From the NCBI GenBank assembly GCA_020819635.1, contig GCA_020819635.1_4533.1: a stretch of DNA of 64,000 nt; one strand, given 5' to 3'. Shown in pieces: positions 16,258-44,781 of the stretch. The stretch is from Escherichia coli (GTDB lineage Bacteria; Pseudomonadota; Gammaproteobacteria; Enterobacterales; Enterobacteriaceae). Position 1 is the first letter of the stretch. Each line of letters starts with the position of its first letter. Below the pieces are notes generated by a model. It saw only the letters and a list, made by a program, of their open reading frames with translations, was not told the DNA's origin and searched no databases. A program made the translations under genes and the position numbers.

Positions 16258-16494
16258 ATGGGTAAACTAATTATGACAGTGGCTATTGATTTTGATGAAG
16301 TAGATGAAAGCCTCAACCTTTCACTTTCTACTGACGTAGATGGCGAAATGGATAATATTGAAGCAGCTACTGCTCTTTTCTTCAAAAAAGCCATTGAAGT
16401 TTATGCCGAACATGCTGCAAATCAGGCAGTAGATTACGGTGGTATCGTGCGAGCTTTAGTTCACTCTACCGAGGGCAATGACTGGGAAGATTAA
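16258..16494 (+). CDS. hypothetical acidic protein
   Basis: 78-aa ORF. Confidence 0.4.
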   Translation: MGKLIMTVAIDFDEVDESLNLSLSTDVDGEMDNIEAATALFFKKAIEVYAEHAANQAVDYGGIVRALVHSTEGNDWED

Positions 16495-16697
16495 TGGCTT
16501 ACAATTATTACTGCATTTATGCACATGAAAAGAAAAAAGGTGACACTGGGACTAACGTTTATGCAGAGTCCGAATCTCATGCAAAAGAGATTGGTGCTAT
16601 CCTTTTATCACGTTGGACTGGAAATAATTACAGTGCAGAAGATATGTTTGCAGAAGTGGATTCTAGTATCCAAGAAGACAACATAACAACTACGTGA
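16494..16697 (+). CDS. hypothetical protein
   Basis: 67-aa ORF. Confidence 0.4.
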   Translation: MAYNYYCIYAHEKKKGDTGTNVYAESESHAKEIGAILLSRWTGNNYSAEDMFAEVDSSIQEDNITTT

Positions 16698-16705
16698 TAT
16701 ACTTA

Positions 16706-16733
16706 TACTCCCTTTTCGGAGGGAGTATTTTAA
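16706..16733 (+). terminator. intrinsic terminator
   Basis: ACTCCC...GGGAGT hairpin followed by ATTTT. Confidence 0.5.
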
Positions 16734-16742
16734 GGAGGGATT

Positions 16743-16937
16743 ATGCAGAGCGGAGAAGAACTTTTAGAGAAACAATTCTCAACGCGTCAACAAGCTTTAA
16801 GTTACATGGTTTTTCTAAGCAATCTTGATGTGAATGAGATACTTTTACGGCGCGAAGGTAATTTCTGGAGCGTTAAATATCATGCAACAAGGTCTGTAAT
16901 CTACCTGGAAGAGGCGGAATTCTCTTTGGTAGAATGA
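16743..16937 (+). CDS. hypothetical protein
   Basis: 64-aa ORF after GGAGGGA RBS. Confidence 0.4.
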   Translation: MQSGEELLEKQFSTRQQALSYMVFLSNLDVNEILLRREGNFWSVKYHATRSVIYLEEAEFSLVE

Positions 16938-20958: not shown

Positions 20959-20967
20959 GGAGAGATT

Positions 20968-21240: not shown

Positions 21241-21248
21241 TAAATAAT

Positions 21249-21271
21249 AACCCGCTTCGGCGGGTTTTTTA
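21249..21271 (+). terminator. intrinsic terminator
   Basis: AACCCGC-TTCG-GCGGGTT followed by TTTTTT. Confidence 0.6.
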
Positions 21272-21300
21272 TTGACAGGAATCTGGAAGCTTGATAAACT
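21272..21300 (+). promoter_or_regulatory. sigma70-like promoter
   Basis: TTGACA, 17-nt spacer, TAAACT. Confidence 0.5.
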
Positions 21301-21330
21301 TAACCTATCAACCAATAGAGGAGAAATATT

Positions 21331-22272: not shown

Positions 22273-22273
22273 T

Positions 22274-22669: not shown

Positions 22670-23345
22670 AACAGTTTTGTCTATGTTTGACGGATCTGGG
22701 ATCATGGTGTTACGTTATGCCGAAGCAGGTCACAAGTGTTTTTGTGTAAACGCTGATGAAGGGGATCACGGTAAATACGAGGTTAGGATGGAGCACCCAA
22801 ACATAACCTATGTTAATGCCTGGATAGATTCTACATTCAACCCTGAAGATCATGGGATACCTAAACCCGATATTATTTTTGGATTTCCACCTTGCACTAT
22901 GTTAGCAGGTAGTGGTAGCAAACACGAACGCAGCACAGAGGAATTGGATGAAGCTTTAGCTAATATTCGTGTAGTGGAAGCTTTGGGTAACAAATATAAT
23001 GTTCCTTGGATGATTGAGAACCCAGTAGGTAAACTTTCAACCTTATGGCGTAAACCCGATTTTTACTTTGATCCTTATGAGTATGGTGGGTATTTGTTTG
23101 AAGAGGAAGGAAGCTTTCATCCTAAAATGCCTACCCGTGATGGGTATACAAAGAAAACTTGTATTTGGCACGGCAATGGTTTTGTTCAACCAGTGAAGAA
23201 ACCAGTAGATCATATAGGCTGCTTCTGGGGTTGGAAAAGCTTAGGTGGAGCTAGTGCAAAAACAAAACAACTTAGATCACTAACCGCACGTGGTTTTGCT
23301 CGTGCAGTGTTTTTGTCTAACAATATTCTAGATAAGGAGAAATAA
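22662..23345 (+). CDS. C5-cytosine methyltransferase-like protein, minimal (catalytic core only)
   Basis: motif I-like LSMFDGSG, catalytic PC motif GFPPCT, ENV-like WMIENPVG; only about 228 aa, no recognisable target-recognition domain or motifs IX/X. Confidence 0.5.
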   Translation: MSKTVLSMFDGSGIMVLRYAEAGHKCFCVNADEGDHGKYEVRMEHPNITYVNAWIDSTFNPEDHGIPKPDIIFGFPPCTMLAGSGSKHERSTEELDEALANIRVVEALGNKYNVPWMIENPVGKLSTLWRKPDFYFDPYEYGGYLFEEEGSFHPKMPTRDGYTKKTCIWHGNGFVQPVKKPVDHIGCFWGWKSLGGASAKTKQLRSLTARGFARAVFLSNNILDKEK

Positions 23346-23998
23346 TGTTAAATTCAAAACCAGTGGTTGCTTATCAAGTAGATCGTAATGATGGTGAAGG
23401 AAGTGTTGTTATTTTCAGTACACACGGTCTTGAGGCTCGTCGAAAAGGTGCATATCGTTTAGAATGTGAGTTTGAAGACTGCACAAGCCACCGTGTCAAA
23501 CAATTCGATCAATATGCTGATAAAGGCTTCGTCCCTATCAAAGCGTTACTGGAAGATGGTTGGTGGGTATATTCTGCTTTTGATTACTCAAAACTGGAGG
23601 AGTCAGCTTCGTGCGCCTCCGAGATCGAATATGATGATTACTATGACACTCTATACCTTCCAGAATGGCTTGTCTTTTCTCCTGATGAGAGAAGTGTCTG
23701 GAAAACGTGGGAAGAAATGGAGAGACATGCGTATAGCATCAATGAAGCTTTAGATCGTAAAGCTTGGTTTATTGAGGCAGTAAAGGCGGCATACCCCCAA
23801 TTCTCATTCTGTGATTTCACTGGCGGCCCAGGATACATTACACATACAGCCTCTTTTGAGTTTCCTGGTTCACGTTATAAGGGTAATGTTTATTGGGACT
23901 GGGATGAAAATAAACAACCTTCGGCTCAAGACTTCCGTTGCTATGTTTGTCAAGGCGATCAAGAAGCCCTTGACAAATACCTACAAAGTCTGGTATAG
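23345..23998 (+). CDS. hypothetical protein
   Basis: 217-aa ORF, ATGA-coupled to upstream MTase-like gene. Confidence 0.5.
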   Translation: MLNSKPVVAYQVDRNDGEGSVVIFSTHGLEARRKGAYRLECEFEDCTSHRVKQFDQYADKGFVPIKALLEDGWWVYSAFDYSKLEESASCASEIEYDDYYDTLYLPEWLVFSPDERSVWKTWEEMERHAYSINEALDRKAWFIEAVKAAYPQFSFCDFTGGPGYITHTASFEFPGSRYKGNVYWDWDENKQPSAQDFRCYVCQGDQEALDKYLQSLV

Positions 23999-25958: not shown

Positions 25959-25987
25959 ATGACCTCCTATTACTACAGATATGAAAA

Positions 25988-26007
25988 AACCCGCCGAAGC
26001 GGGTTCT
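25988..26007 (-). terminator. intrinsic terminator
   Basis: minus strand AACCCGC-TTCG-GCGGGTT followed by TTTTTT. Confidence 0.55.
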
Positions 26008-29929: not shown

Positions 29930-30133
29930 TTACTCATTTCTACCTCCTCCGATGCTTTGTGCAGTACCATCCCAAGCCATTAGAATATTTGCCAATAGTT
30001 CACGAGGCTCTTTAAACCAAACTTCCATTTCATCAAGAATCTCGTCCGTGTCGTAAGTATAACCTGGAACACCAAGTTCCCATTTCTTAATATAACTTTC
30101 TAACCAATGGTGATAATTCTTAACCCCATTCAT
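29930..30133 (-). CDS. hypothetical protein
   Basis: 67-aa ORF. Confidence 0.4.
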   Translation of the reverse strand: MNGVKNYHHWLESYIKKWELGVPGYTYDTDEILDEMEVWFKEPRELLANILMAWDGTAQSIGGGRNE

Positions 30134-30458
30134 ACTGTGCTACCTTTTCTTTTACCCAATCTACGCGATCTTTGTCATAATGTTGAGTGCCAAGAAAAAG
30201 ACCGTTGTGGAAGCTTTCAGCACCGAAAGGATAAATTGGATCTAAACCATCTTCTTCAAATAACATTTTTAATCTGTTTGATGTAGATTTCTTAGTTTCT
30301 GAATCGTAGCTTGTGGTTATAAGCCAATCTTCCAAACAACGACATAACCCTTGACGAGAATCCCAAGGAAAAACACAATCTCCAACAGGAGCTTTTTCCG
30401 CCCATTCTAACCAGCCTTTAAAAAAGTTATACAGTATGTAGTCTTCAGTGTAATACAT
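30120..30458 (-). CDS. paralog-family protein, member 7 (unknown function)
   Basis: shares GLC...PF...R(V/I)xWVK(D/E)(R/K)(I/V) motifs with six other ORFs; AAGGAGG RBS. Confidence 0.55.
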   Translation of the reverse strand: MYYTEDYILYNFFKGWLEWAEKAPVGDCVFPWDSRQGLCRCLEDWLITTSYDSETKKSTSNRLKMLFEEDGLDPIYPFGAESFHNGLFLGTQHYDKDRVDWVKEKVAQYEWG

Positions 30459-30510
30459 TAGCGCCTCCTTTACATATACAATAACACCCCCGCAGAACGG
30501 GGTGCAACTG

Positions 30511-31122
30511 TTATTTAATCTGTTTGAAAATTTCGTTTGGAACGGTACCGTTTAAAATACCTTCTACGATCTCTTGTGCAGATGTGTAAGAGAGTCCAAA
30601 AGAAGCTACGCCTAAAATTGCCTCCTTCAAAGGATCTGGTAAGGGTTCAAAATTACCTGCAACAAATCCTCCCGCACAAGCAGCACCTTCATCATCCCAG
30701 AAAACAACTGCTACTTCATTACCATGTGAAGTTGTGCGATGTGCAAGAACTTCAACTTCAGTACCTTCTTTAGGAATAGAATAAGAGGTGTCCCAGGAGT
30801 ATCTTTCCAAATCGGGGACAAAAATAACCTTCTCACCTACTGGCGGCAGTTCACAACGATAATACCAAGAATTTTTTTCGTTCATTGTTTTATTTTCCTC
30901 CACGTCTTCAAAAGTAACGATCCAATCATAACCGTAAGAAAACGGATATTTTAGATCTAAAGAATAAGTTTGACCTAGATCGTCCTCAACAAGAACCATC
31001 CTGTCAAAGTTTGCGATGTTAGGATTATGTTTAATGACAGGGTATGTTTCCCCTACAGTAAATTGTCCCAAATGGTAAAGTTCGTCTCTCCAAGTGATTT
31101 TGATACGAGTGCATTGAATCAT
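30511..31122 (-). CDS. hypothetical protein
   Basis: 203-aa ORF. Confidence 0.5.
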   Translation of the reverse strand: MIQCTRIKITWRDELYHLGQFTVGETYPVIKHNPNIANFDRMVLVEDDLGQTYSLDLKYPFSYGYDWIVTFEDVEENKTMNEKNSWYYRCELPPVGEKVIFVPDLERYSWDTSYSIPKEGTEVEVLAHRTTSHGNEVAVVFWDDEGAACAGGFVAGNFEPLPDPLKEAILGVASFGLSYTSAQEIVEGILNGTVPNEIFKQIK

Positions 31123-31126
31123 AAAA

Positions 31127-31399
31127 TTACCCCCAAGAAATAGCTATGTATCTTACAATGTTTGCACTGTCTAAAGCCATGTTTGCACCACACCCACGCT
31201 CGCGCCAGTAACTAACAATACCTTCACAAATACTCTCTTGCATCTTCTTATCATTTGGCATTTCTAGTATAAGACTTGGGTTGTGGATGTTTATGTTATA
31301 ATATCCTTCCTCTGCGGCTTGAGCTACCAATTTACTCACTTTTTCAAAGTACGGGGAATTAGTGGCATCTGCCATTGTTTTTAAGGTTTGTCTATCCAT
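31127..31399 (-). CDS. hypothetical protein
   Basis: 90-aa ORF. Confidence 0.45.
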   Translation of the reverse strand: MDRQTLKTMADATNSPYFEKVSKLVAQAAEEGYYNINIHNPSLILEMPNDKKMQESICEGIVSYWRERGCGANMALDSANIVRYIAISWG

Positions 31400-31764
31400 T
31401 ATTCTGCCTCATCATAAAAGAAATCCAACTCTTGTTCCAGTTGTTTAACTCGATCTTTAACCCACTGTATACGTTTTTCATTAAACATGCAACGTTTTTC
31501 CTTACACTCTTGCTCAAAAGATTTTGCTGTGTTAAACGGGAAAGTTGTATCTAAACCAGCGTTTTCAAAACTGGCTAATTGCATACCATAAACAGAATAT
31601 GCTAAAGAATGCTCGGCCCGAAATTCATCGCTTATATACATACGTAGACCTCGGCATAAGCCAACATCAGCGTAACCACTTTCTCTTGGAAAGAGACGGA
31701 GGTGTTCTAACCAATTATTATAGAAATCTAAAAGAATCCTCTTACACTTCAAATCGATTGTCAT
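31399..31764 (-). CDS. paralog-family protein, member 6 (unknown function)
   Basis: LLDFYNNWLEH...GLCRGL...TFPFN...KRIQWVKDRV; start set at MTIDLK after GAAGGAGAAA RBS. Confidence 0.55.
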   Translation of the reverse strand: MTIDLKCKRILLDFYNNWLEHLRLFPRESGYADVGLCRGLRMYISDEFRAEHSLAYSVYGMQLASFENAGLDTTFPFNTAKSFEQECKEKRCMFNEKRIQWVKDRVKQLEQELDFFYDEAE

Positions 31765-32164
31765 AAAAAGTTTCTCCTTCATCGAACAAGTTGGCAAGAT
31801 TGTTCACGGCAATCTGGGTGGAAAGAAGACAACTGTTTGCAGACACATAAGCACGAGCTATTTTGTAAACATAGGCTTTCGTATTACAATTGTCTAGGAT
31901 CGGAAGACTTTCGTCGATAGCATCTATAACACTAAACATCACATCTAAAACTTTAATGGTGAGTGTTGTATTTGTATCTTCGTAACCTTTTTCAATCCGA
32001 CCTGAATAGAAAGCATAGTCCTCAACAGTTCGTCGTTTAAACTGGCGCATAAAATCGGAACCATCTGTAGCAGAATTGAACAAATTTTCAAAAAATACGT
32101 CCCATCCGGCAAAAAGGGCTGACAGCATGATTAAGTGATCTACAGATTCATTTTCTTGTTTCAT
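31742..32164 (-). CDS. hypothetical protein
   Basis: 140-aa ORF. Confidence 0.5.
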   Translation of the reverse strand: MKQENESVDHLIMLSALFAGWDVFFENLFNSATDGSDFMRQFKRRTVEDYAFYSGRIEKGYEDTNTTLTIKVLDVMFSVIDAIDESLPILDNCNTKAYVYKIARAYVSANSCLLSTQIAVNNLANLFDEGETFYDNRFEV

Positions 32165-32172
32165 ATCCTCTC

Positions 32173-32844
32173 CTATTTAATGTTCAGTCTGGCACACAAA
32201 CGAGAAACAGTTTTAGCATCCCATTTACCACCACGTGCTGTTGCTATTTTCTTACTATTGAATTTTTCAGCAATAGTTTTGTAAGGTGTATTTAAATCTC
32301 TAAGGATCTCCAAGCGTTCACGGAATGTCTCTGCAAAAGCGTCTGCTTTAACAGAATTGTATTCCATTTTTCCTTTTCTACGTGCAGCGGCAGTTTTAGG
32401 ATTAGCACTGCCTAATAAAACACCTTTGCTTTTTGCTACAGCAAGACCCTTTTTAATACGATCAGCAATACCTCTAACTTCTTGTTCAGCCAGAACAGAC
32501 AGAAGCTGTATAACCATTTTATCTGCGTCTGGCATGATGGCTATCTTAACATCGATCATTTCTAGAAGAGTTGCTACAGAGGCGTTGTTACGACCCAAGC
32601 GGTCAACTTTAGCTACCAATAAAGTTGCTCCGGTAGCTTTACACATTTCAACCGCTTTAACCAGTTCCTTACGTTGCTTCCAATCGCCCTTGCCCGAATA
32701 GTATTCAGAAAATTGACCAATAACTTCCGCATCAGGCACAGAGTCTAAGAAGTAACGGATATCATTCTCTTGGCTCTCCATACCATATTGTGCCTCACCT
32801 TTTTTCTGTTTAGAAAGACGACTGTAAACAACAAACTTTTTCAT
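32173..32844 (-). CDS. small serine recombinase (resolvase/invertase family)
   Basis: catalytic VYSRLSKQ (Ser nucleophile), VDRLGRN, C-terminal HTH ATARGGKWDAKTVSRL; own TTGACA-17-TAAAGT promoter upstream. Confidence 0.75.
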   Translation of the reverse strand: MKKFVVYSRLSKQKKGEAQYGMESQENDIRYFLDSVPDAEVIGQFSEYYSGKGDWKQRKELVKAVEMCKATGATLLVAKVDRLGRNNASVATLLEMIDVKIAIMPDADKMVIQLLSVLAEQEVRGIADRIKKGLAVAKSKGVLLGSANPKTAAARRKGKMEYNSVKADAFAETFRERLEILRDLNTPYKTIAEKFNSKKIATARGGKWDAKTVSRLCARLNIK

Positions 32845-32914
32845 AACCACTCCTAAACCATTGCTGTATTCTCACTTTACAAAACGAATAAACACTTGTC
32901 AAGGTATTTATTAT

Positions 32915-33127
32915 TTACAGCCATTCTACTCTTAAGCAGTATTCCTCGACATGTTGTTTACGCTTGTTTTTGTCTATGTAAGTGTATTCAACAAATGTCC
33001 CAAGATAGTCCTTGTCTACATTGTGTGGGCTATTGATTGGACATTTAGTACGACAAACCCGTTGCCACTGACGAAGAATTACGGTTTTGTTTTTAGGATC
33101 AAAGGGATGAGGGTAATGTACCTTCAT
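32915..33127 (-). CDS. hypothetical protein
   Basis: 70-aa ORF. Confidence 0.4.
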   Translation of the reverse strand: MKVHYPHPFDPKNKTVILRQWQRVCRTKCPINSPHNVDKDYLGTFVEYTYIDKNKRKQHVEEYCLRVEWL

Positions 33128-33451
33128 TCACGCCCCCTGTTTTAGTCGAAAAATATTTTGAATAACTAGAGATGTATAGTTATCACCTAGTCCCATAAGT
33201 TGTACTTCCAAGTTTCGAATATCTTCCACCGTAGGAGGATATGTTGGTAAAAATGCTTGAGCATTGCCAGATCCAACCTCATTGCTGTAAGCAGTTGTAA
33301 AATTGTAAGATACAAAACATGAAACACCTTTTTGTCGGTACCCGATTAATCGACGAATACACCAGATAAGAGCCAAACCTATGAGAACACCTCCTAAACC
33401 AGCTAACAAAAAGGATAAGTTCATAATAGCTTCGTTAACAACTGCTTGCAT
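33128..33451 (-). CDS. membrane protein
   Basis: 107 aa with a hydrophobic helix LSFLLAGLGGVLIGLALIWCI. Confidence 0.45.
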   Translation of the reverse strand: MQAVVNEAIMNLSFLLAGLGGVLIGLALIWCIRRLIGYRQKGVSCFVSYNFTTAYSNEVGSGNAQAFLPTYPPTVEDIRNLEVQLMGLGDNYTSLVIQNIFRLKQGA

Positions 33452-33461
33452 TCTTTTCTCC

Positions 33462-33761
33462 TTAGTTATGTAAACCCAAATGTGCTACAACTTCTCTACG
33501 ATAAGATAACTGCATAGCGATTTTATAGCCAGGATGAAAACCATTTACATCAATGTCATCAAACCAAACCTCAAACGAACCGTGCTTAAGAGTCATTAAG
33601 TTGATATACCATTCGATAATATAATGATCGTCAGCAATACCTTCGATGTAAAATTCTCGGCAACAGTGAGATAGGTCTTCACTTGTTTCACGTTTCCAGT
33701 CCTTGATAGCACCTTTCTCTTTAGCTTCATTCAAAATTTTGATCAGGTCTTCAACTTGCAT
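33462..33761 (-). CDS. hypothetical protein
   Basis: 99-aa ORF. Confidence 0.45.
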   Translation of the reverse strand: MQVEDLIKILNEAKEKGAIKDWKRETSEDLSHCCREFYIEGIADDHYIIEWYINLMTLKHGSFEVWFDDIDVNGFHPGYKIAMQLSYRREVVAHLGLHN

Positions 33762-33814
33762 ATCTATCTCCTTTGTGGTTAATCTTTATATTTTAAATAT
33801 TGTACCGTCTTCGC

Positions 33815-34228
33815 TCAAATAGCCTCTTTCTCTAAAACAACTCTTTGGATCACAACATCTTCAATGTTTGCCAAACAATGACCCAAAGTCAATCCCGCCT
33901 TGAAAGGTGCTTGTAGTTTGGATTCAGCTTCTACGCGAATAGAATGTTCCGCTCCGCACATGGTGTAATCTACACGGTAAACGTTTAAACCTAAGAACAT
34001 AGATTCTTCTTCCTCACAACAAGGATTGAGTTCAGCCCATTCCCAAGCATCTCCTTCTAAAGCAAACGGAGTGTTGTAATTGAAGAAAGTGCAGCGCGGA
34101 TATTCCCCGTTGAAAGAATCTTTCAGCAAAATATACTTCTTACCGTTTGCGTGGAATAGTTCTCCTTTGATAACCTTACCTACAAGGATATCACTGTTAG
34201 TGGAACGGGTGCAAATAAACTTTTTCAT
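33815..34228 (-). CDS. hypothetical protein
   Basis: 137-aa ORF. Confidence 0.5.
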   Translation of the reverse strand: MKKFICTRSTNSDILVGKVIKGELFHANGKKYILLKDSFNGEYPRCTFFNYNTPFALEGDAWEWAELNPCCEEEESMFLGLNVYRVDYTMCGAEHSIRVEAESKLQAPFKAGLTLGHCLANIEDVVIQRVVLEKEAI

Positions 34229-34282
34229 GATTTTCTCCTCTTTGTTTCGATGAGATGATTATGACAAAGACAGATCCTTCTG

Positions 34283-34603
34283 TCAACTATTTATTTCTTC
34301 TGCTACACGTTCTTTTACCCAGTTCACACGATCCACATTCAAGTGACAGCGGCTTTTTTCCGCTTCTAAGGTGTACTTTCCAAAATTACTGTTGAAAGGC
34401 AACACCATAACCAAATCTTTGCGGTAGAACTGCTCATGCATTTCATCCAGTACTGGTTCGTATCGTTCGCTTTCACCCATATCATAAAAATCATAGAGGT
34501 TCGAGCACAAACCTGTGCAACGGGTGAACGGTTCACCTTCAGGAGCACCAGCTTCCAACCATGCCAAATACGTGCGGTAAAATGTTAATAGTTCTTCGCT
34601 CAT
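34283..34603 (-). CDS. paralog-family protein, member 5 (unknown function)
   Basis: FYRTYLAWLEAGAP...GLCSNL...LPFN...CHLNVDRVNWVKERV. Confidence 0.55.
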   Translation of the reverse strand: MSEELLTFYRTYLAWLEAGAPEGEPFTRCTGLCSNLYDFYDMGESERYEPVLDEMHEQFYRKDLVMVLPFNSNFGKYTLEAEKSRCHLNVDRVNWVKERVAEEINS

Positions 34604-34812
34604 TTCCCCTCTCCTTCGTGATAGTAAACCTCAAAAGAATAGTAAGTGAACATGCTCATCGTGACACCTGCCATTTCTGGATCAACGGAAGTGTTGTTAT
34701 ACATGTCAACTACTGCCTGACCCGCTGCTTTGGCATGTGCTGCCGAATCACAGGCACAAACATCTTTCTCCCACGGAAACTTGCCATCATACTTAAGACG
34801 GACAATCCACAT
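34600..34812 (-). CDS. hypothetical protein
   Basis: 70-aa ORF. Confidence 0.4.
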   Translation of the reverse strand: MWIVRLKYDGKFPWEKDVCACDSAAHAKAAGQAVVDMYNNTSVDPEMAGVTMSMFTYYSFEVYYHEGEGK

Positions 34813-34814
34813 GT

Positions 34815-35042
34815 TTATTCCTCCATCTTAAACCATTCAGGGAACACTTTGTGGAAGACACGAGTTGTTTCCAAAAGGAATTCCAATTCTTTTTCCTGAT
34901 CTGTGTCCCAACCATTTATTTTAACACGGTTTGCTAATGCACTTGCACGATGACTCAACTCTTGACAAATCGGATCACGCAAGAATATTGCATCATAAAA
35001 CTGACAAACAGCTTCAAGTTCATACCAATTATAAGCAGCCAC
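34815..35042 (-). CDS. hypothetical protein
   Basis: 75-aa ORF. Confidence 0.4.
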   Translation of the reverse strand: MAAYNWYELEAVCQFYDAIFLRDPICQELSHRASALANRVKINGWDTDQEKELEFLLETTRVFHKVFPEWFKMEE

Positions 35043-35368
35043 TATTCATTCTCCTCTGCAATACGATCTTTCACCCAATTAATCCTGTCCACGTTCAGGT
35101 GACAGGCATCTGCGTCTGACTCTAAAACATATGCATCATAGTTCTCATTGAAAGGGAGTTCTTGACTCAACCCTTTATAGTGGAACTGCGCGTGCATTTC
35201 ATCTGATAAGGTCGTTATAATGGGGTTGTAATTGTCTCTGTGCACATAATCGAACAAGTTGGCACACAAACCGCAATCCCGCCGAAAAGGTTTACCATCA
35301 GGAGCACCAACATCAATCCATGCTAGATAAATTTTATAAAACTCCATCAACCTTGCGCTTGTTTTCAT
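35042..35368 (-). CDS. paralog-family protein, member 4 (unknown function)
   Basis: FYKIYLAWIDVGAP...GLCANL...LPFN...CHLNVDRINWVKDRI. Confidence 0.55.
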   Translation of the reverse strand: MKTSARLMEFYKIYLAWIDVGAPDGKPFRRDCGLCANLFDYVHRDNYNPIITTLSDEMHAQFHYKGLSQELPFNENYDAYVLESDADACHLNVDRINWVKDRIAEENE

Positions 35369-35606
35369 TTAGCCACCTCGTTAGTTTTTCTTGCTCTTTG
35401 TTTGCGCGTTCTAAGTTTCTAAACTTTAAACAAAGGGAACGAGAATCCCTACCCATGCACAAGCTTTCATCTAAGCTGTGCTCCCCAACCAACCAAAGAG
35501 AATATGTTTGAACATCTAACCCATAGTTTCTGTCTTTCCATAATCTCACCCCAAGAACATCAAAAGGCGCTTCCGCGACTAAAGAAAGAAACCGATCTTT
35601 ATTCAT
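35334..35606 (-). CDS. hypothetical protein
   Basis: 90-aa ORF. Confidence 0.4.
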   Translation of the reverse strand: MNKDRFLSLVAEAPFDVLGVRLWKDRNYGLDVQTYSLWLVGEHSLDESLCMGRDSRSLCLKFRNLERANKEQEKLTRWLNENKRKVDGVL

Positions 35607-35668
35607 ATTACACCACCTTGCTCACGTTGATAATGTATGTATACCATACATAAAATAAATGTCAAGGC

Positions 35669-35869
35669 TTATCGACACAGATAGTTGTAACGATCTGCTT
35701 TATCCTCTGCTTCAGCAAAGTCAGCAATCAAGGAAGTTTTGAGTTCTTCCAACTCTTTCACCCAAGAGTCGTAATCGTCCTGTGTTTCTCCAATAGTTTG
35801 GAGAAAACAATCGTCGTAGCCAATAGACATGGCTAACTCGATAATACGTTCCAGTTTTTCTTCCATCAC
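35669..35869 (-). CDS. hypothetical acidic protein
   Basis: 66-aa ORF. Confidence 0.4.
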   Translation of the reverse strand: MMEEKLERIIELAMSIGYDDCFLQTIGETQDDYDSWVKELEELKTSLIADFAEAEDKADRYNYLCR

Positions 35870-36228
35870 TTCTCTCCTTCTACAGACTTCTGTTTAACAT
35901 AAAAGTAAGCACCGCGAGCAAGATACAAATCATGTTCAATATCGCTCACAGGAAAACCATCTGGATTTTTAAAACCATCTTCTACAGCCAAAATGAGAGA
36001 TCGTAAACTAATAGCTAACAACTCCATTTGATCTTGTAGTTTTCTATTTTCTGCATAAAGGTTTTTGCATTTTTGTTCTGCATTTTTCCATTGTTCTAAT
36101 GCATGATCATAGCGGTGCATAAGAATAGCTTTTTCTTGTTCACGCTTAAAAGTTTCTTCACAAATGAAACCCGTGCCTAAACCAGTTTCTTCATCTTTGA
36201 CAAATACTTCAACAAAATCTTTAGACAT
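35866..36228 (-). CDS. hypothetical protein
   Basis: start set at MSKDFVEV after AGGAGA RBS; longer ORF-table version overlaps upstream gene. Confidence 0.45.
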   Translation of the reverse strand: MSKDFVEVFVKDEETGLGTGFICEETFKREQEKAILMHRYDHALEQWKNAEQKCKNLYAENRKLQDQMELLAISLRSLILAVEDGFKNPDGFPVSDIEHDLYLARGAYFYVKQKSVEGEK

Positions 36229-36229
36229 A

Positions 36230-36493
36230 TTATCTCCTATTTGCTTTTGGATACTCCCAACCCTCTGGGAGATCTTCTTTACACATCCACTCAAAAGGCC
36301 AGCGACAATAACTATGCCACTTCCCATCAAGATACAAGCAATCTTCATCTACTGGTCCACAAGGGTTGATAACTACAACACACCCTTTCGCTCGCCAATA
36401 TTGAACTATTTCAGGGTAAAAACAAGAAACGTCGGTCCACTCCCAAATACGCTCATCATTCAAACGATATGCTGCTGGCAATGTTTCTTCCAT
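36230..36493 (-). CDS. hypothetical protein
   Basis: 87-aa ORF. Confidence 0.45.
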   Translation of the reverse strand: MEETLPAAYRLNDERIWEWTDVSCFYPEIVQYWRAKGCVVVINPCGPVDEDCLYLDGKWHSYCRWPFEWMCKEDLPEGWEYPKANRR

Positions 36494-36497
36494 ATTA

Positions 36498-36956
36498 TTA
36501 AACCTCTGTCAAAGAGAAACGCCAATTACGGCTGTCTCCTTCTCCTAAATACCAACAATCTGCAACATTGATTACTTCATAAGGAATACGCCAAGCATGA
36601 ACGAAATCTGGAATCTCTGGCTTATGACTGTAACCATAACGATCACCACTTGAATCTGTTGTAATATAATTAACAAATTCAGGAACATCTAGAGTTTCAC
36701 CTTGATATTGCACACGCTTAAACCCTTCTTCTACCTCCTTTGGCAAACCTTCTACTAGACAAGCAAGAAGTTGAATGTGAGGGCAAGTGAAGTCTTGTCC
36801 TGGATAACGTGAACGAATATCGTCTAACAATGCGATCACAGCATCTAATAATTCTTTATAATCCTCGTATCTTACAAATGTCCCTTCTGTAGGGTCATCT
36901 TTACATAGAGGCCAAGCATCACTCCAATTTACACCATAATGTTTAACTTTAGACAT
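36498..36956 (-). CDS. hypothetical protein
   Basis: 152-aa ORF. Confidence 0.5.
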   Translation of the reverse strand: MSKVKHYGVNWSDAWPLCKDDPTEGTFVRYEDYKELLDAVIALLDDIRSRYPGQDFTCPHIQLLACLVEGLPKEVEEGFKRVQYQGETLDVPEFVNYITTDSSGDRYGYSHKPEIPDFVHAWRIPYEVINVADCWYLGEGDSRNWRFSLTEV

Positions 36957-37043
36957 TTAAACTCCTATTCATAAACTAAGCTACCTAAAAGAAATATACA
37001 CACAGTGAAAAATATGATTTCGAACATCTTACGGTGAACTCTC

Positions 37044-37442
37044 TTAGTGTTGAGTACAATCAGCTTCTAGAGTAAGAACATTTGTTATTGTTTTATCATT
37101 TTTAAGAAATGCAAACCAAGCTAAAGTGTCCCGATATTCTGTGCGTAGCATAACCACTTCAGTGGTGCCAATAAACTGTTGTGAACCGTACATAGCACTA
37201 CCATCTTTACTCTTTTCTCCTGTGTGTTGCAGAACACCACTCATCAAAGCACCACCTGAATTTTTAAGGATAAAGGAGTTATCTTTATTAATGACAACAG
37301 AAGCCATTTTCTTAGGACCAGAAATCACTTCACCTTTCAGATTTTTAACAACCACATCTGACACACACTCATAAACTTGAGACGCATTTGCTGTTCCAAG
37401 TGATGCGATGAGTAACAAGAAACCTACGATGATCTTTTTCAT
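37044..37442 (-). CDS. secreted protein with signal peptide
   Basis: MKKIIVGFLLLIASLGTANA signal-peptide-like N-terminus. Confidence 0.5.
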   Translation of the reverse strand: MKKIIVGFLLLIASLGTANASQVYECVSDVVVKNLKGEVISGPKKMASVVINKDNSFILKNSGGALMSGVLQHTGEKSKDGSAMYGSQQFIGTTEVVMLRTEYRDTLAWFAFLKNDKTITNVLTLEADCTQH

Positions 37443-37537
37443 ATAAACTCTCCTCTTTATTTACCCGACGCGCCCCTGTTGGGCGGAAAGGGTTGTACGC
37501 AAAATTTTTAGCTCCAATCGTCGGGTGTCCCGACTCC

Positions 37538-37744
37538 TTACGCTTTTAATGTTTTAACAGAATGACAAGCTTTGCAAACAATAACCGGAACAAGTTCATC
37601 TCCATTATCTGCATAAATCACTGTTTTCTTCATTCTGCCACCACATGAACAATACTCTGTATGATCTGCTGGAATATTAAATATTCCGTAATCACTTTCA
37701 TACTGTTTCTTACATACGGACACTGCTTTTGTAAAACAAGACAT
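37538..37744 (-). CDS. small Cys-rich protein
   Basis: CKKQ...CSCGG...CKACH. Confidence 0.4.
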   Translation of the reverse strand: MSCFTKAVSVCKKQYESDYGIFNIPADHTEYCSCGGRMKKTVIYADNGDELVPVIVCKACHSVKTLKA

Positions 37745-37746
37745 AC

Positions 37747-37968
37747 CTACTCCGCAAGAACATTCACTTCGTCAGAGAAAAATACGTAATCACAACCTTC
37801 CCAAACATCTTCTTCAAACCACTCCCATCCCTCAACTTTGGACATTTCTTCTATCGTAACAAAGAATGTTGTCATATCATCACTAACAAGATGTGCTTCA
37901 ACAATAAAAGGAATCTGAACATTCTCAAAACCAACATAACCCAATACATCACAAACTCTAATTTTCAT
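37747..37968 (-). CDS. hypothetical protein
   Basis: 73-aa ORF. Confidence 0.4.
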   Translation of the reverse strand: MKIRVCDVLGYVGFENVQIPFIVEAHLVSDDMTTFFVTIEEMSKVEGWEWFEEDVWEGCDYVFFSDEVNVLAE

Positions 37969-37969
37969 A

Positions 37970-38170
37970 TTATGCTCCTTTGTAGATTATGTTGGTGCGT
38001 TCACACTCTGCCACCAGCAAGCGATTCGCAATGTTATCCATAGGAACATCAATCTCTACGCTCCAGGCATTGATATACACTTCTTCAATTTTTGCTCCAA
38101 ACGTTTGTGCGATCAAGGCAACAGCCCCGGCATATTCAAGTTTAATCTCAATTACCATTTTGCACCTCAA
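37970..38170 (-). CDS. hypothetical protein
   Basis: 66-aa ORF. Confidence 0.4.
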   Translation of the reverse strand: MRCKMVIEIKLEYAGAVALIAQTFGAKIEEVYINAWSVEIDVPMDNIANRLLVAECERTNIIYKGA

Positions 38171-38172
38171 GG

Positions 38173-38409
38173 TTATTTATCTTGCTTGTATCTTACAAGG
38201 CGATCACACTCCAGGTCAAGAAATTTCTCCGCATTTCGTTCATGTTTGAGCACAATACATTGTTCTTTCCAGTCTGTAGCTCTTTGCTGCGCTGCTCCTG
38301 GGTCAAAATCCCAAAGCCATGCTGCGAAAAGAACAACTATAACAATTACCAAGAAACTAAACACTATTGGCATTGCACATCCTCCTGTGTAGCATGATCT
38401 TTTACCCAT
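38173..38409 (-). CDS. small membrane protein
   Basis: hydrophobic IVFSFLVIVIVVLFAAWLW segment. Confidence 0.4.
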   Translation of the reverse strand: MGKRSCYTGGCAMPIVFSFLVIVIVVLFAAWLWDFDPGAAQQRATDWKEQCIVLKHERNAEKFLDLECDRLVRYKQDK

Positions 38410-38678
38410 TTTATACGGGCAGCATTCAAATGCAATAGCCCGTTTCTTTGTGCAAAATCATATTTAAACCAATCTCCGTCATCAAACGGGTATTCTTCAG
38501 ACAATCCTGCCTCACGGAATTGCATTTGCATTTCATAATTTAGATCATCGTAACCACCAGTCCAAAGGTAGAGGCAACTACATAATCCTTTATCATGCCA
38601 GAAAGGATTATTATCTGGAGCACCAGCTAATAGCCAGTTATGATATGCCTGATAAAATTCTTTAAGTTCCTCTGACAT
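38364..38678 (-). CDS. paralog-family protein, member 3 (unknown function)
   Basis: FYQAYHNWLLAGAP...GLCSCL...YPFD...ARIKWVKDH. Confidence 0.55.
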   Translation of the reverse strand: MSEELKEFYQAYHNWLLAGAPDNNPFWHDKGLCSCLYLWTGGYDDLNYEMQMQFREAGLSEEYPFDDGDWFKYDFAQRNGLLHLNAARIKWVKDHATQEDVQCQ

Positions 38679-38870
38679 TTAACCTCCTGTATACAGTGTT
38701 GAAAGATACGCAGCAAAAGCATTCTCGGCTGTTTTCACCTCCTCTTCAAGATCTTCACGCTCTGCTGGCGTTAATGCATTCCGCACAGCAGCGTCTGCTT
38801 CTCGGATTTTTCTTACTAAACGTGAAACATCTTTCAATTGTTGAAAAGTAGCCATAATCTTTCTCCTGTT

Positions 38871-39155
38871 TTAGTGAGTATCACGCCATTCGGCAATCTC
38901 TTCGGCTAAACGATCACAAGAATCGAAAGCCACTTTACCTTTAGTCTGATTTTCATATCGTACTTCCTTCAATGCGAGTAATGCATTCACCAGATTATCA
39001 ACACCTTGATCATCCAGTGCAATAACATCAAAGTTAAACCCTGTATCAGTTGGGACTTTACGTTTTATGGTGTAATAGTCTCCTTCATGACGTTCAACAT
39101 CCGCGTATGGGTAACTGCTGTTTGGATCATGTTTTACGCGAATAGATGTTTTCAT
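38871..39155 (-). CDS. hypothetical protein
   Basis: 94-aa ORF. Confidence 0.45.
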   Translation of the reverse strand: MKTSIRVKHDPNSSYPYADVERHEGDYYTIKRKVPTDTGFNFDVIALDDQGVDNLVNALLALKEVRYENQTKGKVAFDSCDRLAEEIAEWRDTH

Positions 39156-39170
39156 GTTTTGTTCTCCTCT

Positions 39171-39404
39171 TTAATCAAACCAGTTGTATTCGGAAGGGTA
39201 ACGAGCGTAGTTTGGCTTATACCCCAGCCTTTTCATCTTAACAGACATACGAGTGAAGCCAAAGGTTGTTTTGCCCTTAGACATAAACTTCTTCCCACTC
39301 TTCATTGGCTTCTTAGGGTCTTTGATCGTCTGGTGTAACGCTCGCGCAAGCCACAAAGTGTATGCACTCGGCACTTGATTAACTTTCATCTTATTACCTT
39401 TCAT
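39171..39404 (-). CDS. small basic protein
   Basis: start set at MKGNKMKV after AAGGAGG RBS; K/R-rich. Confidence 0.45.
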   Translation of the reverse strand: MKGNKMKVNQVPSAYTLWLARALHQTIKDPKKPMKSGKKFMSKGKTTFGFTRMSVKMKRLGYKPNYARYPSEYNWFD

Positions 39405-39414
39405 CGAAACCTCC

Positions 39415-39642
39415 TTAGTGAACTTCGTGCCAAGTGCCAAACTCTTCTGCTGATACTTTAGGAACGGCATGAGTTTCTCGATATTTGTTTAAAGCTTTCT
39501 CAATGGCTGTAGCAAAAACATCTTGTGATTTATAAGGCATATAATAAGAGCGTCCCATGTATGCCACTGCATCACGTAATTCTTCTGCTTGCTCTTGTGT
39601 AACTGTCAATGTGATAGTAACCATTATTTCACCTCCGACCAA
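39415..39642 (-). CDS. hypothetical protein
   Basis: 75-aa ORF. Confidence 0.4.
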   Translation of the reverse strand: MVGGEIMVTITLTVTQEQAEELRDAVAYMGRSYYMPYKSQDVFATAIEKALNKYRETHAVPKVSAEEFGTWHEVH

Positions 39643-39923
39643 TCAATAGTGATCCACTCGTATGCCCCGTTCAGATCCATTTCTTTATAAACAATAAGCC
39701 CACGCTCACGAAGAATTGCTACTGCTTCATCCATCCACTTCACCTGATTGTAGATCTCCCCTGGGTGGGTAGGGGAATTATCCAGACCAAAATCAGATGG
39801 CGTGAAATTTCTTGAAGAGTTTCCCGCTCGTGCTTCAGCAAAACATGTCTCGATCACTTCTTCAACAGGGAAGTTGAAGGAAGCTTCTTTTGCAATACGG
39901 CGTAACTGTTCGGTCAGATTCAT
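39624..39923 (-). CDS. hypothetical protein
   Basis: 99-aa ORF. Confidence 0.45.
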   Translation of the reverse strand: MNLTEQLRRIAKEASFNFPVEEVIETCFAEARAGNSSRNFTPSDFGLDNSPTHPGEIYNQVKWMDEAVAILRERGLIVYKEMDLNGAYEWITIDWSEVK

Positions 39924-39950
39924 CTTATTCTCCTTTCGTTGTGCGAAACA

Positions 39951-40388
39951 TTATAACAGATCTAATGCTTTCAACTCTTCTTTTAATGATTCAGGCAGGT
40001 CACATTCAATGTCAATCAGAGATAACAAGTGACCAACAATGCCTTCCAGATGTTGATACTCACTATAACTTATAAATTCAGAATTGTAAACAGAAACATC
40101 CTTAGTTTCTTTCACAACTTCCCCCGCAGACACGCACATAAAAAAGTTACGCTCTCCGCGAGCTAACAATATCTCCCAACTCCTGAACGGATACTGTCCA
40201 GCTTCAATAATATCCCCGCTGTCCAATAAAGTCAATGAGCAAACAGACCCTGATTCACTAACATCTTCGACGCGGAAACAAGACCCTTCAATCAAAGCTG
40301 CCATTTTGAAATTTTCATCAGAGATCATAGAGAAAGCTTCACAGGCAGCTTTACTTTTGAAACAGTAAACAGCATTAACTTTAAACAT
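39951..40388 (-). CDS. hypothetical protein
   Basis: 145-aa ORF. Confidence 0.5.
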   Translation of the reverse strand: MFKVNAVYCFKSKAACEAFSMISDENFKMAALIEGSCFRVEDVSESGSVCSLTLLDSGDIIEAGQYPFRSWEILLARGERNFFMCVSAGEVVKETKDVSVYNSEFISYSEYQHLEGIVGHLLSLIDIECDLPESLKEELKALDLL

Positions 40389-40400
40389 AACATTCCCCTT

Positions 40401-40859
40401 TTAAACAAAAGATACACCGATGGTAGCAACAACCATACGTTTATAAACTTCAACCTCTTCTGTAGGATTAGCCATTTTATGCTCTGCTGCTTCTTTCAAA
40501 GCTTCTTCATAACTTTGAGATCCAGAGATACAGGTGTCACCAGTCATTACAACATACCACTCTTCTTTTGTTGTATCAATAGGTTCTTCTTGGGGTTTTC
40601 CACGACCACCACGAACACCACCGTCAACAAAATAATCTATATGAGCAGAATTGATTACGTAACGATCCCCATCACCAGCAGTGATAATACCGTCTCTCAT
40701 ACCTATTACAACCATTGACAAGATATTACCATTTGCATCAGTGCTCAACACCTCGAAAAAATTCTCTCCAATGATAGCAGCAATACTGTTATCAAAGGTA
40801 GAATATAGTCGCATATAATCTTCATCCTGGAAACGGTAGACATGACCTTCTTTAAACAT
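40401..40859 (-). CDS. hypothetical protein
   Basis: start set at MFKEGHV after AAGGAG RBS. Confidence 0.5.
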   Translation of the reverse strand: MFKEGHVYRFQDEDYMRLYSTFDNSIAAIIGENFFEVLSTDANGNILSMVVIGMRDGIITAGDGDRYVINSAHIDYFVDGGVRGGRGKPQEEPIDTTKEEWYVVMTGDTCISGSQSYEEALKEAAEHKMANPTEEVEVYKRMVVATIGVSFV

Positions 40860-41046
40860 GATGTGCTCCTTCTTGTTCAAGAGTAAAAGGAATGATTTCA
40901 CCGTAGCTGTATCGCATAGCATCAACTTCTGCTTCTGCACGTTGTGCTAATTCCAGTGTTGCACAGATTTTATATGGAGTTGTTGTGCACTGACTCCAAC
41001 CTGGGGTGTTCTTAGTCACTAAATATACAGTAGTTCCTTTATTCAT
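40852..41046 (-). CDS. hypothetical protein
   Basis: 64-aa ORF. Confidence 0.4.
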   Translation of the reverse strand: MNKGTTVYLVTKNTPGWSQCTTTPYKICATLELAQRAEAEVDAMRYSYGEIIPFTLEQEGAHHV

Positions 41047-41500
41047 AACTTTCTCCTCCTAGTTCATCATACCATTTCAAAGCGTCTTTTGGAAGCATAC
41101 CAAAATCTTCTTTTAGTTCTTTTTCAATCTCTTCTTTCAGTTCATTCAACACTTGTAGTTGGCGTATTTTCTTCCGTAACAAAGCTTCCTGCTCACTGTT
41201 GTTTGGCGTTACTTCGTTTGCTGTTACCATTACATATCCTGTCGGAGAGCAAGGAAGATAATCATCAATATTTTCTAAAGCATAACGATAATTGGAGTCC
41301 AGGAAGTTTACATGCACTCGATCACATCCAAACAACGTGGCACGAAATACTTCATAACGAGTTTCAGATAAGATATGTTGCACACAGACAATACCTACAT
41401 CGTTTTGCACTGCACAGGTTACATTCAACAAACTTGAGTGTTCTTTGACATAATCTACAACACATTGCACATGCGCTTCTAGTATAGATAGTTGTCTCAT
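41039..41500 (-). CDS. hypothetical protein
   Basis: 153-aa ORF. Confidence 0.5.
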   Translation of the reverse strand: MRQLSILEAHVQCVVDYVKEHSSLLNVTCAVQNDVGIVCVQHILSETRYEVFRATLFGCDRVHVNFLDSNYRYALENIDDYLPCSPTGYVMVTANEVTPNNSEQEALLRKKIRQLQVLNELKEEIEKELKEDFGMLPKDALKWYDELGGESYE

Positions 41501-41736
41501 TTTCTACCTCCCCATAATGCTAACATTTTATTGAAAATGGAAACGCGTCGTGCGCGAGATGCTAATGTTATATTATCTTCCTCGGCACGTTGCAAGTAGC
41601 GATCACACTTAATCAAAGCTTGCGTCTTCTCTTTTAAAGTTTGCGTGTTCATCCACTCTGTCTCAGAGTAGTGATTGTAGAAGTATTCTGTATCCAGAAC
41701 ATTCATAGCTATCTCATTATCTACTGGAAGGATCAT
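41497..41736 (-). CDS. hypothetical protein
   Basis: 79-aa ORF. Confidence 0.4.
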   Translation of the reverse strand: MILPVDNEIAMNVLDTEYFYNHYSETEWMNTQTLKEKTQALIKCDRYLQRAEEDNITLASRARRVSIFNKMLALWGGRK

Positions 41737-41954
41737 TGTACCTGCTCCGCATCCTTCAAGTTTTTAATGAAGTAACGACCAACCGGATTCCCTCGGAAGT
41801 ATTCGTTAATGAAATCGATAACACACGTTTCACTGCCTGTCACAACGGACGGCTTAAAGTTTTGGAATTCTACAGCTACACGGCTGGCTTTAGCCAGTGC
41901 TTGCACACGTGTAGGATTAGTCAAGAACATTGTGACAGTTTTCAAATTCTTCAT
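41733..41954 (-). CDS. hypothetical protein
   Basis: 73-aa ORF. Confidence 0.4.
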   Translation of the reverse strand: MKNLKTVTMFLTNPTRVQALAKASRVAVEFQNFKPSVVTGSETCVIDFINEYFRGNPVGRYFIKNLKDAEQVQ

Positions 41955-42003
41955 TTCATCTCCTCATTGGCTATCTGTTATGTCATCCATTATACAAACA
42001 TCT

Positions 42004-42372
42004 TTATTCAATGCAAGCATTATTTGCATCTTCAATGCGATCTTTCACCCACTGAATACGTAACTCGTTGGTATGACACGCCAAGTTTATACACTCTGAA
42101 AGGTAATCCATGCAATCTGCATTGAACGGAAGATTGTAGTCCAGCCCTGCACATGTAAATTGTTTCCTCATTTCATATTTCAAACGGTCTAACAAATGAT
42201 CACGCCATCTTCTATCTTCTTCTCTAGTTGTCTCACCAACAAAATCATCTATATAGTCTACCAGACAACCACATAAGCCACTCGTTGTGCGATTCATTGC
42301 AGGATAGTTGGCAATCCATGCTTTATAGAAGCGAAGCAATGTTGCACTGCTCAACGGAATACTATTTGTCAT
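42004..42372 (-). CDS. paralog-family protein, member 2 (unknown function)
   Basis: FYKAWIANYP...GLCGCL...LPFN...CHTNELRIQWVKDRI. Confidence 0.55.
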   Translation of the reverse strand: MTNSIPLSSATLLRFYKAWIANYPAMNRTTSGLCGCLVDYIDDFVGETTREEDRRWRDHLLDRLKYEMRKQFTCAGLDYNLPFNADCMDYLSECINLACHTNELRIQWVKDRIEDANNACIE

Positions 42373-44670: not shown

Positions 44671-44781
44671 GGTGTTGTCCTTTGTTTCGTTTCGTTGTTT
44701 GCTGCCAGTGAGTTAAATATAATATAACGCCGATCCCCTGTCAATAGGGGATAGCGCATTATTTACATTTCTTTACGTTAA

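Follow-up and report, generated by a model that had tools for sequence, protein, structure and literature searches.

Small serine recombinases of the Gin/Hin/Cin type are DNA invertases that flip tail-fiber genes or a promoter and thereby switch a phenotype, and other recombinases, for example ParA of RK2/RP4, resolve plasmid multimers. Here we describe a gene for a serine recombinase of a virulent phage, encoded on the minus strand at positions 32173..32844 of a 64,000-nucleotide stretch of DNA (hereafter the window) deposited as contig GCA_020819635.1_4533.1 of the Escherichia coli assembly GCA_020819635.1. From comparison of this gene with its homologs, we tentatively propose, giving the idea somewhat less than an even chance, that it encodes an early-expressed, trans-acting, resolvase-type enzyme that would act on a putative site in the phage genome.

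The gene as such is already known. In public records it goes by "serine recombinase" (UP17), "putative site-specific recombinase" (phAPEC8_0049), "resolvase," or "DNA invertase," the last being the label of phi92 gp053; in a number of records (OR062524/6/9, OR352955, MT496970, MW175890, and others), the recombinase gene or the adjacent DUF7202 gene is labeled "methionine ABC transporter ATP-binding protein," a mistaken name that has spread from record to record. One paper supposes, without data, a resolvase function by which concatemers would be kept as single genomes (PMC10282059), and a literature search found no functional study of the phage recombinase. The question posed is why a strictly lytic 150-kb phage keeps a catalytically intact recombinase under tight selection. 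What is newly brought out here is the relocation of the promoter and the gene as a unit, the homologs on plasmids of 5.8–6.4 kb, and the 34-bp dyads of the family.

A conserved serine recombinase in Phapecoctavirus

The region that encodes the recombinase matches Escherichia phages vB_EcoM_3A1, 10C3, and 118_SA_NWU at 100% identity and about 70 genomes of Phapecoctavirus at 95–99%, among them phAPEC8, ESCO5, ESCO13, and tuntematon. Judged by these matches, the genome is that of a phAPEC8-like Phapecoctavirus of the subfamily Stephanstirmvirinae, which consists of virulent myoviruses of ~150 kb with short direct terminal repeats, and the T4-like character assumed in a preliminary description of this DNA was wrong.

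The coding sequence comprises 223 codons and a stop. The list of open reading frames (ORFs) starts the gene at a GTG (32173..32850, minus strand), but the true start is the ATG at 32844, given that a ribosome-binding site, AGGAG (32850..32854, minus strand), is located 5 nt before it. Two catalytic motifs are readily recognized in the translation and its alignments, both on the minus strand, namely Y7-S-R9-L-S11 (YSRLS, residues 7–11), in which the codon of the nucleophile Ser11, the counterpart of S10 of the Tn3/gamma-delta resolvase, occupies 32812..32814, and DRLGRN (residues 81–86, with D81, R82, and R85; 32587..32604). The latter aligns with the DRLGR(D) motif of the Tn3/gamma-delta resolvase, which we take to hold D67, R68, and R71. 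The catalytic residues as a whole align with those of the Tn3 and gamma-delta resolvases, and among 39 homologs, down to 31% identity, Y7, R9, S11, Q25, R58, D81, R82, and R85 show no variation, and R129 shows almost none. The Pfam Resolvase domain (PF00239) matches residues 5–142 with an E-value of 5e-18 and 66 bits, above the cut-off of 23.3 bits, so that the enzyme of ~220 aa and of the resolvase/invertase type that had been described from the YSRLS and DRLGRN motifs is indeed encoded here. By all indications in the sequence, the gene is real, intact, and expressed-looking, with every catalytic residue present.

The assignment within the family is less specific. PHROG 125 (phrog_125), which is named "DNA invertase," matches the recombinase at 2.6e-32, and comparison of the family profile with PDB retrieved Gin and the Tn3 and gamma-delta resolvases at E-values of 1e-15 to 1e-17, with Gin as the top sequence match (9e-18). 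An NCBIfam search returned no model near its cut-off and no model specific to this family. The possibility of an IS607-type transposase was rejected because the catalytic domain is N-terminal rather than C-terminal after a MerR-like helix-turn-helix (HTH).

The catalytic domain (residues 1–143) is followed by a C-terminal domain of residues 144–223 (32176–32415). An AlphaFold model of the protein (pLDDT 89) consists of a resolvase fold, a long helix E, and a four-helix C-terminal domain, and a Foldseek search with this model retrieved Sin, gamma-delta, TP901-1, and Bxb1 at E-values of 1e-6 to 1e-4. The family profile aligns to Sin and Bxb1 far into the C-terminal domain (positions 18–202 correspond to Bxb1 15–214). 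The "Recombinase" domain PF07508 is hit by residues 187–216 at an E-value of 0.003 and 18.2 bits, below the cut-off of 21.1 bits, and precomputed matches to it exist in five homologs of the phage recombinase. For the HTH of the Hin/resolvase type (HTH_7), there is no Pfam match at E ≤ 0.01. As modeled, the C-terminal domain is short, helical, and of a DNA-binding type; of the C-terminal HTH reported initially, a confidently predicted four-helix domain is left, with no match to the Hin/resolvase HTH model.

Compared with UP17, AV125, anhysbys, and phAPEC8, the gene differs at 5–13 nucleotides and the protein at no position, while neighboring genes do change. An identical protein is encoded in 884 blocks of public assemblies, and its immediate context is the same in the 10 distinct neighborhoods compared. 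These comparisons indicate that the recombinase is under strong purifying selection. In a tblastn search, homologs were detected in 168 phage records. Within Phapecoctavirus, the homologs at ≥99% amino acid identity amount to ~72 Phapecoctavirus-like protein matches, versus 71 records that match the 4-kb region around the gene, and from such roughly agreeing totals, which were compared as totals rather than record by record, all Phapecoctavirus and Justusliebigvirus records seem to have a homolog. The identity is 74% in phiWec179 and PsgM04F, 67% in Citrobacter phage Tr1, 57% in Justusliebigvirus, including phi92 gp053, 52–55% in the Klebsiella relatives, 38% in Vibrio phages, 35% in Shewanella phages 1/4 and 1/40, and 30% in some ICP1 isolates, where the neighboring genes lack the older ICP1 gene numbers. 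The recombinase is apparently a core gene of Stephanstirmvirinae.

More than 540 relatives of the recombinase were found in IMG/VR. In small prophage-like contigs, the homolog is located beside a separate tyrosine integrase, an ERF recombinase, or a terminase; since a separate tyrosine integrase co-occurs, the homolog is not the integrase of these elements. When the 4-kb recombinase region was compared with 5,426 complete E. coli genomes, there was no match and, consequently, no sign of lysogeny.

Promoter and genomic position of the gene

The gene is preceded by a sigma-70-type promoter (32874..32902, minus strand) that consists of TTGACA (32897–32902) and TAAAGT (32874–32879) separated by 17 nt and agrees with the consensus at 10 of 12 positions. 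Taken alone, this match is weak because promoter-like sites in the AT-rich region are not more common than in shuffled sequences (52 observed versus 44.5 ± 4.7). The call is strengthened by the conservation of both hexamers, which are identical in UP17, AV125, anhysbys, and phAPEC8, and by promoters upstream of homologs elsewhere: nine of the lineages compared, phi92, ICP1, and Shewanella phage 1/40 among them, have a sigma-70-like promoter directly before the homolog, as does a tenth, Citrobacter phage Tr1, and in these ten lineages the −35 hexamer is near-perfect whatever the genomic context. The promoter of its own that had been ascribed to the gene is thus corroborated. It is a conserved property of the recombinase gene, such that the inherited unit consists of the promoter and the ORF.

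This unit is located differently in sister clades. The phi92 block gp066...gp041 maps in the same order to window positions 10,747–23,995 (plus strand), with the recombinase as the sole exception. In phi92, gp054 is followed by 57 bp that contain TTGACT-17-CATACT, then by the recombinase and gp052. The corresponding position of the window (16494..16937, plus strand) is "empty," which we consider to be of the ancestral type, and consists of the gp054 homolog (16494–16697), a terminator-like hairpin, and the gp052 homolog (16743–16937; 35% identity, E-value 2e-8). The phi92-like site belongs to the PhoH-HslV...DprA block; here the gene is found 15.5 kb away, on the opposite strand, in the block of small early genes. 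FKP3 and two additional metagenomic lineages have the gene at the phi92-type position, as do the Shewanella phages in a looser sense; in Phapecoctavirus, the phiWec179 group, and Tr1, it is found at the early-block position. Comparison of the gene orders suggests that the promoter and the recombinase ORF moved as a unit between the sister clades; given that it is this unit that relocated, the recombinase would have to act in trans, on a site located elsewhere.

The different placement in sister clades is also compatible with a selfish or hitch-hiking cassette that would derive from a plasmid or prophage resolvase module, relocate occasionally, and contribute nothing to phage multiplication. 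Plasmids and prophage-like contigs commonly carry homologs, the ICP1 homolog lies in a variable region, among genes outside the older ICP1 numbering, and the block around the recombinase gene itself is a mosaic one with early promoter cassettes. We nevertheless consider such a cassette improbable because the position is fixed in the examined records of each genus, with ~70 Phapecoctavirus-like records matching the local 4-kb context and the phi92-type context recurring in phi92, FKP3, and four metagenomic contigs. Moreover, the synteny with the Shewanella phages argues for long vertical inheritance, purifying selection is strong and the catalytic set has stayed intact across deep divergence, and no flanking repeats mark the ends of an element. 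The suggestion that the gene could be a remnant of a mobile element accordingly stands in part: the unit did relocate, to judge from the gene orders, and it has homologs on plasmids and prophage-like contigs, but, with invariant catalytic residues and strong purifying selection, it is not a remnant in decay.

The recombinase gene sits in a block of small early genes whose transcription runs inward from the left end of the genome. Window positions 42,992–43,320 are where many GenBank records have one of their ends. In the Justusliebigvirus BME3, a 342-bp direct terminal repeat was set by PhageTerm (PMC12210895), and it begins at a position that aligns with window position 42,992. The segment 42,992–43,320 with its surroundings (42,820–44,200) is probably the physical genome end; with the terminal repeat mapped at 42,992, the recombinase gene lies ~10.4 kb from the left end of the genome.

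The host-type promoter and the location in an early host-takeover block near the entering genome end raise the possibility of an early enzyme that would recombine or cut a site not in the DNA of the phage itself but in the host chromosome, a resident prophage, a satellite, a defense island, or a co-infecting phage. In line with such a target, the phage genome contains no recognizable cognate site, and the ICP1 homolog is found among accessory genes in a region unlike the older ICP1 gene numbering. However, there is no candidate host site, the phi92-like gene is located among genes of nucleotide and DNA metabolism rather than host takeover, and the presence of homologs in phages of Escherichia, Klebsiella, Shewanella, and Vibrio makes a common host target unlikely. 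We assign a low probability to this explanation.

Plasmid homologs and upstream dyads of the family

Full-length homologs, with the C-terminal domain included, are encoded on 109 plasmids at 35–40% identity. Several of these plasmids are small, with sizes of 5.8–6.4 kb. Two plasmids of 5.8 kb were examined, and on both the homolog (36–38% identity) is the only annotated recombinase; one of them also encodes RepA and ParA. Further homologs are found on plasmids of 6.0–6.4 kb. On the Klebsiella 5.8-kb plasmid, a 34-bp dyad (16+2+16 bp) is located 50 bp upstream of the homolog.

Such dyads recur in the family. The 150 bp upstream of 72 family genes were scanned for even-centered 34-bp dyads at p<0.05, with 150 upstream regions of the same loci as controls. 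A significant dyad was found at 22 of the 72 family loci (31%) versus 5 of the 150 controls (3%). Most of the significant family dyads are centered 20–56 bp before the start codon, the half-site ACAAA-N6-TAACG is common to seven of them, and in all 14 loci examined, with flanks of up to 10 kb on each side, the dyad is present in a single copy. By analogy with plasmid systems, a single gene-adjacent site on a small replicon would follow the logic of multimer resolution and not that of an inversion switch, and it is this family evidence, the single-copy upstream dyads and the small-plasmid homologs, that leads us to prefer resolvase logic for the phage enzyme.

Under this proposal, the recombinase would be made early by the host RNA polymerase and would act in trans, in dimeric or tetrameric form, at a specific site that does not adjoin its gene. 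With one site per replicon, the recombining copies would be those of a multimer or of sister molecules, in the way that plasmid multimers are resolved, and the phage might thereby turn its dimeric or multimeric replication intermediates into unit circles, or cyclize or re-sort genomes early in infection. A broader and more speculative reading, which we regard as rather unlikely, is that an entire group of virulent terminal-repeat myoviruses, among them Stephanstirmvirinae, some ICP1 isolates, several Vibrio phages, and Shewanella phages 1/4 and 1/40, has site-specific recombination as a conserved early step of the life cycle. In these phages, a compact serine recombinase would act in trans, the target being either a cryptic phage site at which replicating genomes are circularized or resolved or the DNA of the host or of a competitor. 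We know of no strictly lytic phage for which such a role of recombination has been demonstrated.

The position of the family dyads, just upstream of the gene and overlapping the promoter hexamers in the Shewanella phages and phi92, would suit a protein that is mainly a DNA-binding regulator, an autorepressor or an operator-binding protein, in which recombination is vestigial. Resolvases are known autorepressors, as established for Tn3. Nevertheless, the nucleophilic serine and the whole catalytic set, which a pure regulator would not need, are invariant, and there is no operator-like dyad at the promoter of this phage, so that this explanation appears very improbable.

Lack of evidence for an invertible segment

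The recombinase had been suggested to control an invertible or excisable segment. The complete genome of 150,431 bp was rebuilt from the window and OR062524 and compared with itself. The search for inverted or direct repeat pairs, which the preliminary description had recommended as a check, returned no pair that resembles crossover sites, in either the window or the rebuilt genome. The inverted repeats of the window are at chance level except for two facing terminators, and the repeats of the genome that exceed chance are ~17 direct promoter/stem-loop cassettes, one inverted cassette, the terminator pair, and two palindromes. The facing terminators, with UUCG tetraloops, form a perfect 22-nt inverted pair, AACCCGCTTCGGCGGGTTTTTT, at 21,249–21,270 and 25,984–26,005, that brackets a 4.7-kb segment with a Sir2-like gene; this pair does not look like crossover sites, and the segment has one and the same orientation in all ~58 genomes. 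The early cassettes were rejected as recombination sites given that their stems vary compensatorily and so are hairpin-like rather than a fixed protein site.

The genomes of relatives were compared using three 25-kb queries (~75 kb altogether), namely window 8001–33000, the head-to-tail-fiber module, and the tail-spike/replication module, the modules corresponding to 62–87 kb and 86.5–111.5 kb of the record and taking in all tail-fiber and tail-spike genes. For these queries, 58–66 independent Phapecoctavirus genomes are collinear, on a single strand and in a single place, and the gaps in the alignments are replaced genes, not inversions. Window 33,001–58,000 is too mosaic for collinearity to be judged (36–86% coverage, with several pieces and places in the record of each relative). 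Next to the recombinase gene, no inverted repeat was found in 84 family loci. Given the lack of repeat pairs, the collinearity of the genomes over these ~75 kb, and the lack of gene-adjacent inverted repeats, a frequently switching invertible segment is very unlikely, and the invertible or excisable segment proposed at the outset finds no support.

These observations bear most directly on an invertase of the Gin/Hin/Cin type. The name of PHROG 125 and the best match of the family profile, Gin, both speak for it, the phages carry several tail fibers and spikes, and there are distant "master" invertases, Mpi for instance, whose target sites are remote. The Mpi model of NCBIfam, however, scores only 22.6 bits on the recombinase, with a cut-off of 272 bits, and the only inverted pairs in the genome are the two UUCG-loop terminators and one promoter cassette. 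In addition, no orientation polymorphism is seen over the three 25-kb stretches in the 58–66 assemblies, where all tail-fiber and tail-spike genes were covered, family loci lack the gene-adjacent inverted repeat, HTH_7 is not matched, and the gene relocated without any neighboring segment. We conclude that an invertase is highly improbable.

This bears on practice because Phapecoctavirus and phi92-like phages are frequent candidates for phage therapy and safety screens flag recombinases as a possible marker of lysogeny. We argue that, as regards temperate behavior, this flag is a false alarm in the case of the present gene, which is conserved and vertically kept, has no prophage copy in the 5,426 E. 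coli genomes, and has no inversion switch associated with it.

Search for the target site

Several observations weigh against the proposed resolvase-type role. A target site in the phage genome was sought, and none was found. The dyad at the phage promoter matches at 9 of 13 positions, and because 96 of 500 shuffles are as good, an autoregulatory or res-like dyad at this promoter was rejected; the dyad is not conserved in the phiWec179-like relatives or in Tr1 either. In phi92, the promoter dyad is marginal (21 of 500 shuffles), and it is absent in the relatives L012 and FKP3. Genome-wide, even-centered 34-bp dyads are at chance level (at 12/17 matches, 26 versus 19–30 in shuffles; 13/17 also at shuffle level), except for two that have other explanations. 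In Shewanella phage 1/40 (L015 9947–9980) compared with phage 1/4 (L016 9949–9982), the central 16 bp of the upstream dyad are exactly inverted between 9-bp outer arms and flanks that are near-identical, which suggests a hairpin-like structure, and the family upstream dyads could be plain operators or hairpins. Furthermore, it is not obvious that monomerization would be useful, given that concatemers are the packaging substrate of terminal-repeat phages, and the role of the plasmid and prophage-like homologs may not transfer to the phage enzyme because they are only 33–40% identical to it. Nonetheless, the dyad signature of the family provides a starting point for locating the target of the recombinase.

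The two genomic dyads that reach at least 14/17 matches are an AT-only palindrome before the tRNA cluster and window 43,547–43,584. The first, which is outside the window (OR062524 53,994–54,027; L005 ~10,995–11,028), is the strongest even-centered palindrome of the genome (15/17, A/T only) and is located in the intergenic region from which the replication-gene block and the tRNA cluster diverge, possibly as an origin or as part of a bidirectional promoter region. The second was rejected as a recombinase site because it belongs to a conserved structured element in which the spacer ranges from 4 to 35 nt among relatives, as appropriate for a hairpin. A Cre-lox-like cyclization site in the terminal repeat (~42,992–43,320) was rejected as well: the Fur-box-like motifs present there are odd-centered 19-bp palindromes, which do not suit a serine recombinase with its 2-bp staggered cut. 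These conserved palindromes, ATGAGAATAATTATCATT, are located at 43,049–43,066, with a second copy at 43,228–43,245; ATGAGAATAATTATCATT together with A43048 makes up 19 nt identical to the terminal repeat of BME3.

Other features of the locus

The flip of the dyad core in the Shewanella phages also alters the −10 element and can be described as a "flip-flop" of the hairpin loop.

The gene-free region 42,820–44,200 contains a conserved non-coding element of ~175 nt (43,528–43,706), which is 73–80% conserved across all Stephanstirmvirinae (133 records) and has no match in Rfam. Its predicted fold is multi-branched, with 57 pairs, of which 12 show compensatory double changes (five sequences), and a long-range closing helix. 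The plus strand folds at −68.7 kcal/mol versus −49.9 kcal/mol for the minus strand, and invariant G-U pairs are found on the plus strand. The element could be a non-coding RNA or form DNA hairpins involved in duplication of the terminal repeat or in packaging.

The minus-strand genes of window 44,200–56,050, a region that is highly mosaic among relatives, include the ~17 direct cassette copies, which are located before small genes. Each cassette combines an ATG and a ribosome-binding site with a strong sigma-70 promoter and a conserved leader that forms a GC stem-loop, TAGGGCGGCAATGGTGCCGCTCA, of which compensatory variants occur; the inverted copy is outside the window (OR062524 116,830–116,889). 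We take the cassettes to resemble the "promoter-early stem-loop" cassettes of T4-type phages.

The recombinase gene is flanked by seven minus-strand copies of phrog_2510, a family of small proteins without an assigned function, which extend across window 30,120–42,706 (30120–30458, 31399–31782, 34283–34603, 35042–35368, 38364–38678, 42004–42372, and 42362–42706), in agreement with the paralog-rich block noted earlier. Its upstream neighbor is a DUF7202 gene of 70 aa (32915–33127). A cofactor was sought among the nine neighboring genes, none of which has a known function. Further away, at 20,465–20,740 (plus strand), a 91-aa protein is encoded that contains an Acb2/Tad1 hairpin domain (Pfam PF24729, E-value 1.3e-16) and is likely a sponge for cyclic-nucleotide defense signals.

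Comparison with known systems

The closest relatives of the recombinase are its orthologs phi92 gp053 and phAPEC8_0049 (57 and 100% identity, respectively), which have the same length and domain layout and the same kind of sigma-70-like promoter upstream. The phi92-like gene is located between gp054 and gp052, whereas the recombinase described here is 15.5 kb off, on the other strand.

With the Tn3/gamma-delta resolvase and Sin, the phage recombinase shares the fold of the catalytic domain and every catalytic residue, and the logic of one site beside the gene that characterizes these enzymes is seen in part of the wider recombinase family as well. Unlike them, the phage recombinase has no HTH_7, no recognizable multi-subsite res, and no adjacent site, and is not carried by a transposon or plasmid. 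Gin of Mu, Hin of Salmonella, and Cin of P1 are, as in the present case, small serine recombinases that are phage-borne, but at the locus described here an adjacent invertible segment, 26-bp inverted sites, and orientation polymorphism are all missing, and the C-terminal domain differs. As for the large serine recombinases Bxb1, phiC31, and TP901-1, the linker after helix E and the first C-terminal helices of the phage recombinase resemble the start of their "Recombinase" domain; in contrast to these enzymes of more than 400 aa, it has 223 aa, without a zinc ribbon, a coiled coil, or lysogeny. Finally, as to the multimer-resolution recombinases of small plasmids, full-length homologs at 36–38% identity, themselves uncharacterized, are the sole annotated recombinases of the two 5.8-kb plasmids examined, and the Klebsiella one is preceded by a 34-bp dyad. 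Unlike the plasmids that undergo multimer resolution, the phage is a virulent virus with a linear genome, in which multimer resolution has no established role.

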